Source: a bacterium ADurb.Bin157
GTDB lineage: Bacteria; Muiribacteriota; Ozemobacteria; Ozemobacterales; Ozemobacteraceae
Reading direction: 5' to 3'
NCBI GenBank assembly: GCA_002070375.1
Contig: MWDD01000007.1
Coordinates: forward strand, 12,985 to 76,984
DNA length: 64,000 bases
Part shown: positions 6,923-44,107 of the stretch, piece by piece
Layout of the letters: each line of letters begins with the position of its first letter
Position numbering within the stretch: the stretch's first letter is position 1
The notes under the pieces: model-generated
Databases searched by the model: none
What the model was told of the DNA's origin: nothing
The model's input: only the letters and a program-made list of their open reading frames with translations
Translations under genes and position numbers: made by a program

Positions 6923-7426
6923 TTTGTTGTTTGTTTCCTTAAAGAGTCCCACTGAGTGTTCGTAATTTTGTTTGCAAAGTATAACACGATTGTTTTGAAA
7001 AATAAAGATTTGTCTGTTTTTGTTTGTTTTGTCTTTTGCACAAAGCTTATTATTAATGTACATTAATTATTAATTAATAAAAGATAGCAGTATTAATAGT
7101 ATGCTCGGTGGATATGTGGAAAACTATGTGTACAACCTTTTATGACTGATTTTTCCTATGTGTAAAACCTTGTGCTTAACTTAATATGTTTTCCACAGTT
7201 TATCCACATTTGTTGTTGTTTGTTCATGTTTATGAGTTATTAACAATTTATCCACACTTTTTCCACTTAGTTTTCCACCGGGTTATCAAAACTTTAGTAT
7301 TAAAAAAACTTGCGATTTAAATTTTTGTCTGATATTATTCGACAATCCAACGGCTCAATAAAAGCTTTTTCAAGGTATTTCTTTTGTTTTGCGGTTGTAC
7401 ACTAATTCTAGCGAGGCAATGTACAT
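6923..7426. other. chromosomal replication origin (oriC): DnaA-box cluster plus AT-rich unwinding element, upstream of dnaA
   Basis: Perfect TTATCCACA boxes at 7200-7208 and 7248-7256. Variant boxes are TGTGGAAAA (7123-7131), TTTTCCACA (7190-7198), TTTTCCAC (7258-7265) and TTTTCCACC (7271-7279). An AT-rich stretch at about 7290-7400 lies immediately 5' of dnaA. Confidence 0.8.
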
Positions 7427-10373: not shown

Positions 10374-10383
10374 GCTAAATGAA

Positions 10384-10411
10384 AAACGGCGTTTATACGC
10401 CGTTTTTTTTT
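10384..10411 (+). terminator. rho-independent terminator
   Basis: aaacggcg-tttata-cgccgttt hairpin followed by a T9 run. Confidence 0.75.
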
Positions 10412-10531
10412 ACACAGAAAATTGTGCATAATCAATATTACCTTAATTTCGTTAACAAGCTTTAAAATTATATCCCTAACTTTTTTTTATTAAATTTCAA
10501 ACTTGCTTTTGAATCAGATTATAAGTTAATC

Positions 10532-10671
10532 TTAGTATTCATCGAAATTCGCGAATCTGCCGCGATAAAAGATAACAAACTTGCAATGATTGCAGTTTAA
10601 GGTGAAATATGATGTGTGTTGGCCGGAATGTGACTTACGTACCATTGGAGCACTGCATTGTGGGCAAAGCA
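10532..10671 (-). CDS. small zinc-ribbon protein (46 aa), putative
   Basis: MLCPQCSAPMVRKSHSGQHTSYFTLNCNHCKFVIFY... has CxxC-N17-CxxC; a perfect AGGAGG Shine-Dalgarno lies about 10 nt upstream of its ATG on the minus strand (complement of cctcct 10682-10687). The longer track ORF (to 10834) is probably over-extended. Confidence 0.35.
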
Positions 10672-10766
10672 TATATAGAACCTCCTGTTCTTCTGGATAA
10701 CCTTGCGATAATCTTCCCTGTCTATTTTCAATATCGACACAATTGACCCAAAACTTTATACCTAAA

Positions 10767-16945: not shown

Positions 16946-16992
16946 ATTTATCTGATATATTGTTTTAAAAATATCTACCGCGAGGTTTTACT

Positions 16993-17277
16993 TTGGAAAA
17001 CAAAAAAGAACAGGTTGTTATTACGGTCCTGGGAATAAGCAAACCCGGTATCTTGGCCGGCATAACCCGAGCAATAGCAGATTCAAACGTTAACGTAGAA
17101 GATGTGAGCCAAAAAATTATGCAGGGTTATTTTGCTCTTATGATGATGACTGACTTTGCAGGAGCAAATTGCAGCTTCGAAGAGTTTCAAAACAGAATGC
17201 AAGCTGTTTCTGATCGATTGCAGGTGAAGACTTTTATACAGCATGAAGATGTTTTTAGATTCCAGCATAGACTGTGA
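16993..17277 (+). CDS. ACT-domain protein (UPF0237 family)
   Basis: VVITVLGISKPGILAGITRAIADSNVNVEDVSQKIMQGYFALMMM is an ACT fold; TTG start after a GAGG Shine-Dalgarno; forms the conserved pair with the downstream UPF0210 gene. Confidence 0.7.
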   Translation: MENKKEQVVITVLGISKPGILAGITRAIADSNVNVEDVSQKIMQGYFALMMMTDFAGANCSFEEFQNRMQAVSDRLQVKTFIQHEDVFRFQHRL

Positions 17278-17291
17278 CGGAGGAATAAAAA

Positions 17292-22075: not shown

Positions 22076-22101
22076 TTTTTTGCAAAAATAAAACAAAAAC
22101 A

Positions 22102-22131
22102 TTGAATAATTTATCTCCTTTATGGTATAAT
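22102..22131 (+). promoter_or_regulatory. sigma-70 promoter for tRNA-Leu (TTGAAT-N18-TATAAT)
   Basis: -35 at 22102-22107; consensus -10 TATAAT at 22126-22131; the tRNA begins about 12 nt downstream. Confidence 0.6.
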
Positions 22132-22142
22132 ACACTTCGCTA

Positions 22143-22227
22143 GCCGGAATGGCGGAATTGGCAGACGCACGGGACTCAAAATCCCGCGCCCCTTAAAGGC
22201 GTGTCGGTTCGACCCCGACTTCCGGCA
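22143..22227 (+). tRNA. tRNA-Leu (anticodon CAA), long variable arm
   Basis: Acceptor stem gccggaa/ttccggc; anticodon loop gactCAAaatc; T-arm ggttcgacccc; 85 nt; CCA not encoded; followed by a terminator. Confidence 0.88.
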
Positions 22228-22231
22228 CCGA

Positions 22232-22263
22232 AAGCCCCGTTTTCATACGGGGCTTTTTGTTTT
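22232..22263 (+). terminator. rho-independent terminator after tRNA-Leu
   Basis: aagccccg-ttttcata-cggggctt hairpin followed by a T-run. Confidence 0.75.
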
Positions 22264-22314
22264 AGCCCCATTGACTTTAATGATTAAATTAAGTTAAACT
22301 TTGTTTTGAATAAA

Positions 22315-22345
22315 ACTAAACGAACTGAGTTTTTTGGTCGATACG
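22315..22345 (+). promoter_or_regulatory. sigma-28 (FliA)-like promoter candidate upstream of flgM
   Basis: TAAA-N16-GTCGATAC compared with the consensus TAAA-N15-GCCGATAA. Confidence 0.35.
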
Positions 22346-22417
22346 AATTTTGGAGGCGTCCTCCGCTTATTAAAATAGATATATGGGGGAAGACGTTTTA
22401 GGGAGTCAGGAGGAACC

Positions 22418-39527: not shown

Positions 39528-42389
39528 ATGCCTAAGAATACCGACTCTAATGTTCATAAAGAGATTGAAGATTTAGTTACGGATTTACGTTCTACTCTTG
39601 TTACAAAGCGACTTAAAGCAGTTAAAGAATTAGGAAAACTTAAAACCGACTTGGCGGTTGAGCCGTTGGTTTATACATTGAACGATCGTTCAAAAGAGGT
39701 TCGGTGTGCGGCTGTTGAGGCCATTGGTTTAATAAACCCCGCCAATTTGGCAGATTTAATTGTTTATTTAGCCAAAGATAAATCTGCCGATGTTCGTTTG
39801 CGGGTGGCTCACGCTTTAGGTTCAAATACAACAGATTTGTCGGTTGATACTCTGATGATTTTGGTCAGAGATCAAAAAGACGAAGTTGCTAATATGGCTG
39901 CAAAAAGCTTGTCAAAGAACCCGACAGGCAGCTTGGCTTTATTGATAAGGCTTTTTGCCGATAATTCTTGGAAGTTGCGTTCAAGGGCTGCTGCCGCTGT
40001 TACGAGAATGGGCAAAGTCGCTACAGAAGCTTTGAAAGTTGCACTTGAAGACAGCGATTCAAATATTCGTTTTTGGGCGATAACCTGCCTGGGTCATCTT
40101 CGTGACAGATCTAACAGCAAGCTTTTGGTAACAGGATTAAACGATAAAGACCCCGGAGTAAGAATAGCTGCTCTCAGGGCTTTACGAGAACTTGGCGACC
40201 CAAATATCGCATCTATGTTGTTTGAAGCTCTTTCTCAACCGTCAGATCGCGTCAGAGACCTTGTTTATGAGATTTTAAAAGATTTTGGCACACATTCGAT
40301 CCCCTATTTAATGGATTCGCTGTCTAATGAGTTTTGGATGGGGCGTTCGTTAGCGGCCCAAGCCTTAACCGACATGGGTGCTGATGCGGTTGCCCCTTTA
40401 GTAAGCGCCTTAGAAAGCCAAGACAAAGAAAGACGATATTGGGCAATAAAAATACTCGGAAAAATGCGGGAAAAAACGGCTTATGCCGCGATAAAAAAGT
40501 TTCTCAGCGACCCTGACCCCGAAATAAGAATGGCGGCCCTCGAATCTATGGGCTATTATCTTGATACCGAGTCTATACCAAACCTTATAGAGCGGTTTAT
40601 GGACCCCGCTTGGGTTGTTAGAAAGCACGCGGCAAGGGCTGTTACCGCATTTGCTCATAAGGCGGTTCCGTTTTTGATAAAGTCGCTCAAATCAGAAGAA
40701 GAAGATGTCAGATATTGGGCTTTGCGTTCTCTTGGGGATCTTAAGCCAATAGGAATTTTTCCGGTATTGGTTAAGCTTTTTACAGACCGTTCATGGACAA
40801 TAAGAAAAACTACTTCTGATGTTTTATCTGAATACGGGGAAGACGCTTTGATGGAGTTAACGGCTTTGGCGGCAGATTCAATTGAGTCGGAAACCAAATA
40901 TTGGGTTTTGCGTTCACTCGGAAAAATTAAATCAAAGATATCTTTGCCGTTGCTGTTCAGGGCACTTGACGATGAATCAGAATCTATTATGGATGCTGCT
41001 CAGAAAGCTTTGTCAAATTATGGTGAAGAAATAATAGACGATCTGTTTGCTTTGTTTAAAAGTGAAAAACGCAGATTATTAGAGAGTGTGTGCAATACTT
41101 TTCAGCGTATGGACGCAAAGATCGTTGTTCCGAAGTTGTGCCGTAATCTCGGAAAATTTGATGAGCAAATAAGCTATTGGATACGCAGAACTCTTTGCGG
41201 GTTTAAAAAAGACTCGCGCGAAGAGATTTTAAAGCTATTGCAAAGCAAATCTGAAGAAATTAGGCGCCAGGCTGTTATATGCTTAGGACAATTTGGCTTT
41301 GAAGAAGACGCTAAACACGTTTTGCCTTTGTTAAAAGATGAATCATGGCCGACGAGAATCGCGGCAGCAGAGGCTTTGGGTGAATTGGGCGACCCCATTT
41401 CTGTTTCCCATTTAACAGAATCATTAGAAGACGAAGACGAAGATTTGGCCATGGCTTCCATGATTTCGCTTGGTAAAATAGGCGATGAACGGGCTGTTCC
41501 CGGTCTTATATCAACTCTTCACCACGAATCTTGGGCATTAAAGTTTCAGGCAATCAGAATATTAGGTGAAATGCGAGTAAACAGGGCCTTTATAGATCTT
41601 TTAAGATTACTGGACGAAGACACATTAGATCTTAAAACCCATATTATAGGAGCTTTATCGCGTATTTCTCACGCAAAATGCTATGATGAATTAAAGAAAA
41701 GGTTTGAAAAAGAGAAAGATTCAGAAGTCAAAATGGCTTACATTGAAGCTTTTGCAGAAATCGGAAACAAAGACATTCTTTCTTTGATTGTTAAACTGGC
41801 GAGAGAAGGCAACGAAAACCGCGAAGAGCGGCGCGCAGCAATTAGAGCATTAGGTAAAATGCACGCTATTGAAGGAAAAAATGTTTTGTTGGCGGCCTTG
41901 CGCGAAAAAGACGCGGTAATAAACAGAGAGGCGCTTTCTGCGTTAGAGCTTATTCTTGATCGCGACGAGTTTAACAGAACAGAAAAAGCGATTACTGAGG
42001 CAAGAAAAAAGCAAGAGGCTTTTACTGTGGCGTTTAATACGGGAATGAGCAATATGCGCACAAACAATTACACAGAAGCGGAAAAGCATTTAAAAGAGGC
42101 TGTTAAAATTAATCCTAGAGCGTCTTATGTGTATTCGGCTCTGGGAAATCTTTATTACAAAACAGGACGCTTGATAGATTCGACAAAAGCTTATGTTATG
42201 GCAACCGGCTTATCCCCGCAAGATGTGACTTTGAAATTGAATCTGGGAATGGTGTATTATCGAAGAAGAGCTTATAAAGAAGCTGTCGGCATGTTTGAGT
42301 CTGTTTTGTCGGTAGCAGGGCCGAAGTCGCAGCAGGGCGATTATTCTGCAAAAATGATAAATAAAATCAAAAGTGAAATTAAAAAATAA
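39528..42389 (+). CDS. HEAT-repeat (PBS-lyase type) protein with C-terminal TPR
   Basis: At least 15 repeats of the ...VRxxAxxALGxxGDxxAxxxL... unit (for example VRCAAVEAIGLI, VRIAALRALRELGDP, TRIAAAEALGELGDP); C-terminal TPR (SALGNLYYKTGRLIDSTKAY). Confidence 0.8.
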   Translation: MPKNTDSNVHKEIEDLVTDLRSTLVTKRLKAVKELGKLKTDLAVEPLVYTLNDRSKEVRCAAVEAIGLINPANLADLIVYLAKDKSADVRLRVAHALGSNTTDLSVDTLMILVRDQKDEVANMAAKSLSKNPTGSLALLIRLFADNSWKLRSRAAAAVTRMGKVATEALKVALEDSDSNIRFWAITCLGHLRDRSNSKLLVTGLNDKDPGVRIAALRALRELGDPNIASMLFEALSQPSDRVRDLVYEILKDFGTHSIPYLMDSLSNEFWMGRSLAAQALTDMGADAVAPLVSALESQDKERRYWAIKILGKMREKTAYAAIKKFLSDPDPEIRMAALESMGYYLDTESIPNLIERFMDPAWVVRKHAARAVTAFAHKAVPFLIKSLKSEEEDVRYWALRSLGDLKPIGIFPVLVKLFTDRSWTIRKTTSDVLSEYGEDALMELTALAADSIESETKYWVLRSLGKIKSKISLPLLFRALDDESESIMDAAQKALSNYGEEIIDDLFALFKSEKRRLLESVCNTFQRMDAKIVVPKLCRNLGKFDEQISYWIRRTLCGFKKDSREEILKLLQSKSEEIRRQAVICLGQFGFEEDAKHVLPLLKDESWPTRIAAAEALGELGDPISVSHLTESLEDEDEDLAMASMISLGKIGDERAVPGLISTLHHESWALKFQAIRILGEMRVNRAFIDLLRLLDEDTLDLKTHIIGALSRISHAKCYDELKKRFEKEKDSEVKMAYIEAFAEIGNKDILSLIVKLAREGNENREERRAAIRALGKMHAIEGKNVLLAALREKDAVINREALSALELILDRDEFNRTEKAITEARKKQEAFTVAFNTGMSNMRTNNYTEAEKHLKEAVKINPRASYVYSALGNLYYKTGRLIDSTKAYVMATGLSPQDVTLKLNLGMVYYRRRAYKEAVGMFESVLSVAGPKSQQGDYSAKMINKIKSEIKK

Positions 42390-42434
42390 AATAATTTTAA
42401 AATAGCTTGACTTTTTAAATGCTATTGTGATAGG

Positions 42435-43543
42435 ATGAATCTGTTAAGCGAGATCATTGAAAATTAAATCGACAGCCAAAAGTGTCTACTTCTGAACTCA
42501 GGTAGAAACCGGACGGTTATCCAAAGATGAGTGGTGTTACCCGGTGACGGGCAAACAACTCTGAGGAGAAAAAAATAATCCAGGGTAGCGCGGGATCGAA
42601 GAAGAAGTGACAACCAAGGCACAAATTCCATAGGGGGAGGCTCTCCGAGTAATCGGAAACGCCAACTTTTGTAGCAGTAAGACTCTAAGAGGGTAGAAAC
42701 CCTGAAAGAGGAAGTGCGTAAGCACAGGGCGACAGAAGCCTGATACCCCAAAGGACAGAAGGTCAAGAGAGTTATGTTTCGTTTTTGAAGGAGTGAAATC
42801 TGACAAAATACGATCTGCTCTGCACCATGGGATAAAAGCTCCATGGCTGGCCAAATCTCAAAACGGGAACCGGCTGCTTGCAGCGAGGGGCTTGGGTAAG
42901 TTATAGTCGCAACAGATGTAAGTCTGGCGGTTGAGCGGAGGGATCCGCAAATGAGTCCAAGAAGAAATCCGTATAGAGATGGTAACAGCGAAGAAGCAAG
43001 GCAATCAGAAACGATTCGCCGATCATTGCAGTGTTAAACTCTGAAGACCCTGACCCCGCGAGTGCTTGCAGGATGGAATAAGCCTGCGAATCATCTGGGA
43101 TGTAAGTTCTGCTGAAAGGTTGAGAAAACCTATGAGCGGAGTGCGACAGGGCCGGAATCCTGTTTGTCGCAGCCCTTTGATTATAGCGCTGAAGGGGAAA
43201 AAACCTAGAGAGGCGTTGGTGTATCGCAACCAATGAAGATGTGTGAAAGAGCCTTGAAGTCGAACATAAGTTTGAAAGAGGACAGAAAAACTTGATTAAC
43301 CTCAGTTCGGTGATTGTATGAGGGCCTTAAGGACGACGAACGTTTAAAGGCTTTACGTAACCAAATGCGCGTAATAGTGCAATCATGTTAAAACTCTATG
43401 AAAAGTGTAACGACAAGAAGGTGTAGGCGATACCGGTGACGGTATTGACGAACCGCATATCGAAAGTCTCTGAGAAGGCACGTCGATTTCAATGAAACCT
43501 AGCTTAATAAAAAGACCTCTGAGTAATCAGGGGTCTTTTTTTT
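42435..43543 (+). ncRNA. candidate large structured non-coding RNA (about 1.1 kb, class unknown)
   Basis: No + strand ORF of at least 60 aa across 42390-43726 in a window that is otherwise about 90% coding. It is locally GC-enriched and purine-rich. An upstream TTGACT (42407-42412) plus a -10-like element precedes it and an intrinsic terminator at 43512-43543 follows. GNRA-capped hairpins include cccg-GTGA-cggg (42540-42551), ataccg-GTGA-cggtat (43430-43445) and ggg-tagaaa-ccc (42691-42702); the GGTAGAAACC motif is repeated at 42501 and 42691. Confidence 0.5.
43512..43543 (+). terminator. rho-independent terminator ending the candidate ncRNA
   Basis: gacctctga-gtaa-tcaggggtc (GNRA loop) followed by T8. 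Confidence 0.75.
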
Positions 43544-43653
43544 GCTAAATTTTTGTACATTGCTGCTCAATTTTTAGCAAATACAATTTTTTTGCATTGC
43601 GATGATTGTGGTGAAACCCTCTTTATTTCGGGTTTTCGTGAAATTTTTAAAGT

Positions 43654-43669
43654 TGGCACAAAAAATGCT
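43654..43669 (+). promoter_or_regulatory. sigma-54-type -24/-12 promoter candidate
   Basis: TGGCACaaaaaatGCtt: GG (43655-56) and GC (43667-68) lie at the canonical 11-nt register of TGGCAC-N5-TTGC, about 55 nt upstream of the ATG at 43727. Confidence 0.4.
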
Positions 43670-43726
43670 TTGACTTAGACATCCGATATGTCGATAAGAT
43701 TATAAGTTTTATTAGGAGTAATTAAA

Positions 43727-44107
43727 ATGCGTAAAGTAATTCTTGTTTCTGCCCTTTCTCTTGTTTTGAGCGCTGCCCCTTTGTTTGCCGGTCCTTCTAA
43801 CAGCCAATCTTCACAGACTTCACAGCAGTCTTCTCAATGTTCACAGCAATCTGGTAATTGTTGCCAAAAACCCGGAGCTTTCTCTAAAATAAAAGATTCT
43901 TTCAAAAAGGGTTTTCAGGCAGGCAAAAAAGTTGGAACAAAAGCTCATGACAGCATTCAGAACAAAGTTATGGACGGCGGAGTTTGTGTAAAAGAAAAAC
44001 TTACCGGGAATAAAGACAAAACTTTTGTTAAAGGTTACTATACAAAAGATGGTAAGCATGTAAAAGGCCATTGGAGAAACTTAGAAACCAAAAAAGGCAA
44101 AAGATAA
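43727..44107 (+). CDS. small secreted Q/S-rich, lysine-rich protein
   Basis: Signal peptide MRKVILVSALSLVLSAAPLFA; SQSSQTSQQSSQCSQQSGNCCQKPG tract; GGAG Shine-Dalgarno; followed by a terminator. Confidence 0.6.
   Translation: MRKVILVSALSLVLSAAPLFAGPSNSQSSQTSQQSSQCSQQSGNCCQKPGAFSKIKDSFKKGFQAGKKVGTKAHDSIQNKVMDGGVCVKEKLTGNKDKTFVKGYYTKDGKHVKGHWRNLETKKGKR

Follow-up and report, generated by a model that had tools for sequence, protein, structure and literature searches.

A large structured RNA gene of a new class in the uncultivated phylum Candidatus Rifleibacteriota

We describe a 64,000-nucleotide (nt) stretch of contig MWDD01000007.1 from bacterium ADurb.Bin157 (host phylum Candidatus Rifleibacteriota), here called the window, in which positions 42443 to 43543 of the + strand are almost certainly a real and new gene for a structured RNA. 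Selection on this gene maintains base pairs, not a reading frame. The account that we favor as a whole, with somewhat better than even confidence, is that it is a free-standing gene for a structured non-coding RNA (ncRNA) of about 1.1 kb that acts in trans as a scaffold. A preliminary description of the window had singled out the region as a gap without open reading frames (ORFs), rich in G+C and purines, between the stop codon of a HEAT-repeat gene (42389) and the next coding sequence (43727), and both properties are borne out. The longest + strand ORF in the gap is 56 amino acids (aa), and its 1,337 nt form, by a wide margin, the longest ORF-free stretch of the window, 91% of which is covered by ORFs of at least 100 aa. 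The G+C fraction of 42443-43545 is 0.462, the highest of all 1.1-kb segments (mean 0.390, standard deviation 0.028), and its purine fraction of 0.60 falls within the top 1% of such segments. The limits of the gene and the parts of its predicted fold are as follows.

42390-42406, + strand: A/T-rich tract, possibly an UP element; A-rich tracts lie directly 5' of TTGAC in 15 of the 15 homologs reaching that far
42407-42436, + strand: sigma-70-type promoter, found by promoter scan and conserved at the same alignment position
42443-43543, + strand: RNA gene, with a primary transcript predicted at about 1,100 nt (alignment A1, consensus fold and covariation)
42443-42449 with 43502-43508, + strand: helix 1, 5' strand GUUAAGC (columns 6-12/1113-1119; 4 of 7 pairs compensated)
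42466-42473 with 43482-43489, + strand: helix 3, the second closing helix (columns 32-39/1080-1087; 5 of 8 pairs compensated, 100% of cells paired)
42475-42620, + strand: domain 1, helices 4-10, including a GUGA-capped hairpin at 42540-42551
42627-42755, + strand: domain 2, helices 11-17, including a hairpin at 42691-42702
42761-43049, + strand: domain 3, the largest, helices 18-30, with an invariant GUGAAA loop at 42793-42798
43051-43204, + strand: domain 4, the conserved core domain (alignment A2, model R1; 43054-43197 in the consensus fold)
43209-43471, + strand: domain 5, helices 39-50, with an invariant AACCAAUGC-type loop at 43359-43368
43513-43543, + strand: intrinsic terminator, a 10-bp stem with a GUAA loop and a U tract (sequence, RNAfold and covariation)

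The principal evidence comes from covariation. From the 16-sequence alignment A1, RNAalifold derives a consensus fold of 51 helices and 281 base pairs, made up of two closing helices, five domains and the terminator. Compensatory double changes occur at 140 of the 281 pairs, compared with 25 to 35 covarying pairs in controls with slid partners, and standard pairs fill 96.8% of alignment cells, compared with 35 to 43% when the partners are slid by one to three columns; none of 500 shuffles reached the observed values. When 92 environmental sequences were added, giving 95 sequences that are non-redundant at 97% identity, 91.5% of cells paired and double changes were seen at 234 of the 281 pairs. 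The + strand folds at -350 kcal/mol, against -297 kcal/mol for its complement, and single domains fold better than their shuffles (z = -3.5 for domain 4 and -3.0 for domain 5). In the predicted architecture, five independently folding domains radiate from the two closing helices, in which the ends of the molecule pair. Helix 1, at the very ends, exists as GUUGAAC/GUUCAAC, GUUGAGU/ACUCAAC and GUUAAGC/GCUUAAU, and because these compensations are independent its 5' strand must be transcribed.

All three hairpins named in the preliminary description lie where it placed them. Those at 42540-42551 (helix 9, 6 of 6 pairs compensated) and 43430-43445 (helix 50, a GUGA hairpin of domain 5, 6 of 8 pairs) covary, whereas that at 42691-42702 (helix 16) has zero compensatory change of its own and is nested within the covarying helix 15. 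Elsewhere in domain 2, helix 14 is compensated at 7 of 9 pairs, and loop variants pointed to an additional GUAA-capped hairpin in domain 3, within 42909-42928. The GUGAAA loop at 42793-42798 is the same in all 16 sequences, and domain 4 holds an invariant hairpin, AGGUU-GNGAA-AACCU (43117-43131), together with a GCGCU..GGG strand; the loops GUGAAA, GNGAA, AACCAAUGC and GGGA are invariant or nearly so, and several hairpins are GNRA capped. The earlier proposal that recurrences of GGTAGAAACC and similar words reflect duplicated structural domains is not supported: a BLAST comparison of the region with itself shows no internal repeat, and in the homologs the first GGTAGAAACC is not conserved and does not form a hairpin. 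As to coding capacity, substitutions among the homologs show no 3-periodicity, and no ORF is conserved across them on either strand, the longest ORFs varying in strand and size. The antisense ORFs of the window, including 42464-42844 (-) and 42901-43233 (-), have no Pfam or other family match, in line with the earlier opinion that the minus-strand ORFs are spurious.

The signals at both ends had also been proposed from the outset, and both are conserved in homologs. In the promoter, the -35 element TTGACT (42407-42412) and the -10 element TAGGAT (42431-42436) are separated by an 18-nt spacer containing TG, and in the 15 genomic homologs that cover the 5' flank TTGAC(A/T) is invariant and the -10 element always fits TAnnnT. 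The upstream A-rich tract, a possible UP element, is kept even in Ozemobacter relatives with 60% G+C. The predicted start was set 7 nt past the -10 element and the end at the U tract of the terminator. The terminator hairpin, AGACCUCUGA-GUAA-UCAGGGGUCU followed by the U tract, was not picked up by a simple terminator scan and is revealed by RNAfold and by covariation (helix 51, 5 of 8 pairs compensated). All homologs likewise close with a GC-rich hairpin and then a stretch rich in U.

A homolog search, suggested as a check in the preliminary description, recovered full-length copies with compensatory conservation. Scanning one genome per GTDB species with a 19-base motif from domain 5 gave 16 loci, 15 of which are in metagenome-assembled genomes carrying one full-length copy each, of 1.10 to 1.13 kb; the sixteenth, in a Kapaibacterium, was rejected as a chance match. 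Eight of the 15 genomes are labelled Rifleibacteriota, Ozemobacteraceae or similar, and seven only as "uncultured bacterium." These genomic copies form four clades with pairwise identities of 56 to 97%, and metagenome contigs carry at least 92 more full-length copies. All homologs have a purine fraction of 0.575 to 0.615 irrespective of their G+C content. The copy in Ca. Ozemobacter sibiricus, located about 2.3 kb downstream of the HEAT gene and in opposite orientation, and that at locus L021, which is about 75% identical to the window RNA and directly follows a 71% identical HEAT ortholog, align from the promoter through the 3' end. RNA divergence parallels that of the neighboring protein (74% and 57% identity for the RNA versus 71% and 59% for the HEAT protein), and from these sequences the RNA appears to be conserved across the whole phylum. 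Over shorter distances, a comparison of strains in 100-nt steps gave 97 to 100% identity in the RNA, 94 to 98% in the flanking coding genes and 82 to 84%, with a 22-nt indel, in the spacer, so that the RNA is under stronger constraint than its protein-coding neighbors. Public short-read assemblies with an identical downstream gene (L001-L010) all break within the RNA (at 42685, 43230, 43306 and 43355) because co-occurring strains differ less in it than in its flanks; in assembly-graph behavior it resembles rRNA.

Environmental contigs suggest that the gene yields a discrete transcript. A 23-base split motif from domain 4 that matches all known copies was scanned against Joint Genome Institute (JGI) contigs and matched at least 120 of them. 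Among the matches listed, 77 contigs are 1.0 to 1.2 kb long and align end to end with the RNA; 68 of the 77 start within a 9-nt interval (42450-42455), and about 60 end at roughly 43502-43526, just before or within the 5' arm of the terminator. These short contigs carry no flanking coding sequence; other contigs extend far past the RNA in both directions. Such bimodal lengths, with ends inside conserved sequence, are as expected of metatranscriptome assemblies of a discrete, abundant RNA, and the RNA is therefore likely to accumulate as a discrete species of about 1.05 to 1.1 kb.

The RNA matches none of the described families against which it was compared. With cmscan and Rfam 15 (4,227 families), the only match in the window at the gathering threshold was a tRNA gene (22143-22227, + strand) 20 kb from the RNA. 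The interval 42300-43750 gave nothing other than terminator look-alikes at E<=10, four close homolog loci gave nothing at E<=1, and 13 distant loci gave a single tRNA at E<=0.1, so that, as to the Rfam check proposed in the preliminary description, there is no match to a known family or to an rRNA fragment. Covariance models of OLE, GOLLD and ROOL matched neither the window, nor the region at E<=10, nor the four homolog loci. No Rfam intron match, and no reverse-transcriptase (RT) domain nearby, points to a group II intron, and the RNA is bounded by its own promoter and terminator, not by exons. Phage and plasmid records contain no match to the RNA, and the core-domain motif was not found in IMG/VR. 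Full-text searches of the open-access literature turned up no account of this RNA and nothing linking Riflebacteria or Ozemobacter to non-coding RNA. Together with compensatory rather than coding-type conservation, these results uphold the earlier call of a large structured ncRNA of unknown class, and on the open-access literature we regard the RNA as representing a new class, outside every described family tested.

Large, intricately folded bacterial RNAs are rare, and those with known roles serve fundamental ones: the rRNAs, RNase P, transfer-messenger RNA (tmRNA), signal recognition particle (SRP) RNA and self-splicing introns. In layout the window RNA recalls 23S rRNA and RNase P RNA, with 5' and 3' ends that pair (helices 1 and 3), autonomous domains that radiate from them, a purine-rich composition and GNRA caps; the resemblance is one of layout only, no model of either matching at E<=10. 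RaiA-motif RNAs, at about 200 nt, are far smaller, and the window RNA has no Rfam match. Like it, raiA-motif (ModT) RNA is a widespread structured ncRNA with its own promoter and terminator, abundant as the window RNA appears to be, and it occurs in Bacillota and Actinomycetota (PMC11706538). OLE RNA, of about 600 nt (PMC9723947), belongs to Gram-positive extremophiles and anaerobes, where it functions together with Oap proteins in a ribonucleoprotein (RNP) at the membrane (PMC9723947, PMC10898510). Both OLE and the window RNA are large, lineage-restricted bacterial ncRNAs with an intricate covarying structure and invariant nucleotides, whereas the window RNA has no sequence or structure match to OLE, is about 1,100 nt long, belongs to another phylum and lacks a conserved partner gene; among its varied neighbors no association with an oap gene was found, and its host belongs to Candidatus Rifleibacteriota. 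GOLLD and ROOL, the class that the preliminary description had in mind together with OLE, have their genes in phages and prophages, in many cases close to tRNA islands, and assemble into nanocages of 14 and 8 subunits, respectively; GOLLD members often exceed 800 nt (PMC12286853). The window RNA shares with them its very large size and its ornate, multi-domain fold with many capped hairpins. In contrast to them, it is chromosomal, appears to be vertically inherited, is absent from the viral, phage and plasmid collections searched and has no match to either family; the one Rfam tRNA of the window is 20 kb away. A look for covarying palindromic loops found none. It has properties by which a large ornate bacterial ncRNA is operationally recognized (more than 500 nt, non-coding, a structure supported by covariation), and at about 1.1 kb it exceeds the known ornate RNAs, GOLLD and OLE included.

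Our tentative proposal is that the RNA, once folded, serves as a stable scaffold in trans. The proposal draws on analogy with OLE, ROOL and GOLLD and on the closed, multi-domain architecture, and although we place it somewhat short of an even chance, it is the function that we favor. The scaffold would take the form of the RNA core of an RNP or of an RNA-only higher-order assembly, and the RNA would be neither a cis-regulator nor an mRNA. Several observations weigh against this account, or against parts of it. No partner protein, ligand or target was identified for the RNA, and its function is argued by analogy. Mutual information over the 95 sequences gave helix extensions only (columns 75-76/161-162, 242/308 and 794/1074) and no clear pseudoknot. 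In OLE and GOLLD, symmetric kissing loops are marked by loops that change from one palindrome to another (PMC12286853), and none of this kind was seen here; there are only fixed palindromes (CCGG, GAUC, GCGC and GGCC), mostly inside stems, and the RNA may have other types of bridge. Expression is deduced from contig geometry, and the JGI contigs may be assemblies of RNA or of DNA. Finally, the contigs start 6 to 12 nt inside the predicted start and end 20 to 40 nt before the U tract, shortfalls that may reflect assembly-edge loss or processing next to helix 1. The orphan classes OLE, GOLLD, ROOL and raiA have lately yielded unexpected biology, including RNA-only nanocages (PMC12286853). An RNA of about 1.1 kb with 51 helices, covariation over its full length and seemingly high expression would widen the size range of orphan structured RNAs, and its alignment makes it a well-prepared target for cryo-electron microscopy by structural biologists. 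It would also indicate a further RNA-based function in an uncultivated phylum that figures, to judge by titles, in studies of wastewater reactors and subsurface aquifers.

Domain 4 is shared more widely than the rest of the molecule. Among the matches listed, about 30 of the contigs found with the split motif align by nhmmer only over this central domain. R1, a covariance model of the core domain built from alignment A2, scores 143 bits at its one match in the window and detects a full-length core in every distant contig, at 56 to 88 bits and E values of 1e-13 to 1e-21. In this core of about 155 nt, compensatory changes occur at 36 of 45 pairs and 90% of cells are paired, compared with 33 to 45% in slid controls. 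The distant contigs (L050, L053, L055, L064, L067, L072, L077, L080, L081, L087, L093, L100, L108, L111, L116, L124, L127, L129, L137, L139, L140, L143, L144, L146 and L150-L152) share only the core, and in part the 5' domains, with the window RNA and have no Rfam family match. Some of them (L146, L151 and L124) are again about 1.03 to 1.09 kb long. Others (L053, L064, L108, L140 and L143, also L116 and L111) carry two or three units that are about 70% identical and 1.0 to 1.09 kb apart, and are tandem paralogs, not assembly concatemers; L064, of 3.66 kb, contains no ORF longer than 114 aa. A third group of long contigs (L055, L067, L100, L137, L152 and L127; 2.3 to 3.5 kb, G+C 0.62 to 0.64) nearly all share a 5' end, L152 beginning about 200 nt in, and have one core domain at about 560-715 followed by 2 to 2.8 kb with neither codon periodicity nor a long ORF. 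In three sequences this 3' extension shows 19 compensated pairs, against 1 to 3 in slid controls, a tentative sign of covariation, and the long contigs may represent giant ncRNAs that are relatives of the family. L087 is the sole gene-bearing contig; its proteins have best non-self matches of 66% (ABC-F) and 49% (FkbH-like) identity, and the few named matches come from mixed phyla.

We regard it as evenly balanced whether the window RNA is the genome-anchored founder of an undescribed superfamily of giant bacterial ncRNAs, built around the core of about 155 nt, diverse and apparently abundantly transcribed in the environmental samples searched, and comprising units of about 1.05 to 1.1 kb, tandem arrays and non-coding contigs of at least 2.9 to 3.5 kb. 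If so, among bacterial ncRNAs only rRNA would be larger than its members, which might form the RNA core of an undescribed cellular machine or RNA assembly.

The setting of the gene bears on whether it stands alone, and its immediate surroundings are these.

39528-42389, + strand: HEAT protein with C-terminal TPR, 953 aa, the upstream neighbor of the RNA
43545-43726, + strand: true intergenic spacer outside the RNA, 82-84% identical between strains and with a 22-nt indel

In the window the neighbors are the HEAT/TPR protein, a small ORF without a family match and a polysaccharide deacetylase. The preliminary description had raised the possibility that homologs keep the HEAT-repeat and small-protein neighbors, and outside close relatives they do not. 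The HEAT gene adjoins the RNA only in the window lineage and L021 and is about 2.3 kb away in Ozemobacter, and at the other HEAT orthologs the RNA is absent within 6 kb. Between clades the neighbors are unrelated: a tyrosine recombinase with a protein of about 1,070 aa without a family match, a sulfatase, a CHASE2-SpoIIE protein and others. Because of these unrelated neighbors, and because other HEAT orthologs have no RNA nearby, the RNA is a free-standing gene and not part of an operon. Since it lies near the RNA in three lineages, including Ozemobacter, the HEAT/TPR protein is, speculatively, a candidate partner of the RNA; the adjacency may be no more than residual synteny.

Among alternatives to the scaffold, the one that survives best, although we consider it unlikely, is that the RNA carries out chemistry, either as a new ribozyme or as the catalytic RNA component of an RNP enzyme. 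Its size and closed multi-domain layout are those of large ribozymes, the loops and junction strands GUGAAA, GNGAA, AACCAAUGC and GCGCU..GGG are invariant across sequences that are only 52 to 60% identical, and the core domain is conserved in the wider superfamily. Against this, there is no Rfam ribozyme match, neither a substrate nor a processing-site signature nor an associated enzyme gene came to light, and loss at assembly edges could account for the contig ends near helix 1. It seems to us less probable again that the RNA regulates or sequesters in trans, for instance as a sponge or decoy for an RNA-binding protein. Known sponges are short, with simple sites repeated many times. The purine-rich composition, the strong promoter, the apparent abundance and three conserved hairpin loops with GGA (GGGA, UGGAA and YGGAA) would suit such a role, but nearly all of the 1.1 kb is locked in covarying helices, each motif is single copy and there are no repeated modules.

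Two further possibilities are both very improbable. A highly divergent housekeeping RNA (RNase P RNA, tmRNA, 6S RNA, SRP RNA or an rRNA fragment) would fit a single copy that is conserved across the phylum in a variable context, as housekeeping RNAs are. None of these families was matched at E<=10 on the region, or on the 17 homolog loci at E<=1 or E<=0.1, and inspection of the consensus showed no RNase P P4 or CR-I motif, tRNA-like end or tag ORF. A mobile or selfish element as the source of the RNA, whether a group II intron lacking an ORF, a retroelement or, as for GOLLD and ROOL, a phage or prophage, is brought to mind by the clade in which the RNA follows the tyrosine-recombinase gene and the protein of about 1,070 aa, and by the tandem copies among the distant relatives. 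It is contradicted by the single copy in the 64-kb window and single locus in each matching genome, by the parallel divergence of the RNA and the HEAT protein, by a promoter and terminator in place of exons, by the lack of an intron or reverse-transcriptase signature and by the lack of a match in IMG/VR and in phage and plasmid collections.

Less credible still is a cis-acting part of a neighboring mRNA, either the 3' untranslated region of the HEAT gene or a giant leader of the downstream gene. Both neighbors are on the same strand as the RNA, and no terminator lies between the HEAT stop codon and the RNA; what does lie there is a conserved promoter, and the next gene is set off by a strong terminator and about 180 nt of fast-evolving spacer. 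Moreover, the neighbors differ in other lineages, the Ozemobacter RNA is on the opposite strand and the short contigs lack flanking coding sequence. A degraded or unusual protein-coding gene, for instance an equivalent of the 240-305-aa ORF found after the HEAT gene in relatives, has in its favor that this ORF, without a Pfam match, occupies the corresponding position and that ORFs have been called over GC-rich homologs of the RNA. It is effectively refuted: by tblastx those ORFs downstream of HEAT have no similarity to the RNA region of the window, tests of codon periodicity and ORF conservation were negative for a gene and a pseudogene alike, the longest ORFs vary in strand and size from copy to copy, it is base pairs that are conserved, and the antisense ORFs are unmatched.

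Public annotation of the locus either leaves it blank or overlays it with hypothetical proteins. In the public records of the window genome (L011 and L012) the RNA locus is unannotated, and in GC-rich homologs gene callers have put hypothetical ORFs over the RNA, for example one of 401 aa in L018 (11331-12536, + strand), antisense to the Ozemobacter RNA.

The HEAT/TPR protein is 100% identical to one recorded under the name "bacterium ADurb.Bin157." Its orthologs are 53 to 75% identical to it and carry the labels Candidatus Riflebacteria, Rifleibacteriota or Ozemobacteraceae; they were found only in sequences labelled Rifleibacteriota or left unnamed, the next-best matches being at most 28% identical, under other labels and mostly archaeal. 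In other Rifleibacteriota (L014-L019) the HEAT/TPR gene is followed by the ORF of 240 to 305 aa without a Pfam match and by two HSP20 genes. In one clade of RNA homologs (L027, L026, L024, L084, L099, L126 and L128) the RNA is always downstream of an XerC-like tyrosine-recombinase gene (297 aa), and a same-strand protein of about 1,040 to 1,090 aa without a Pfam match is also encoded upstream; L126 has an extra 386-aa ORF in between. The window has further ORF-free gaps of 340 to 370 nt at 7064-7426, 10374-10742, 16946-17291 and 22076-22417, the last of which holds the tRNA gene; the other three gave no match in the general Rfam scan of the window, the sole examination made of them. The spacer at 43545-43726 is hypervariable and holds a second promoter-like site, TAGACA-N16-GATTAT (43676-43703).

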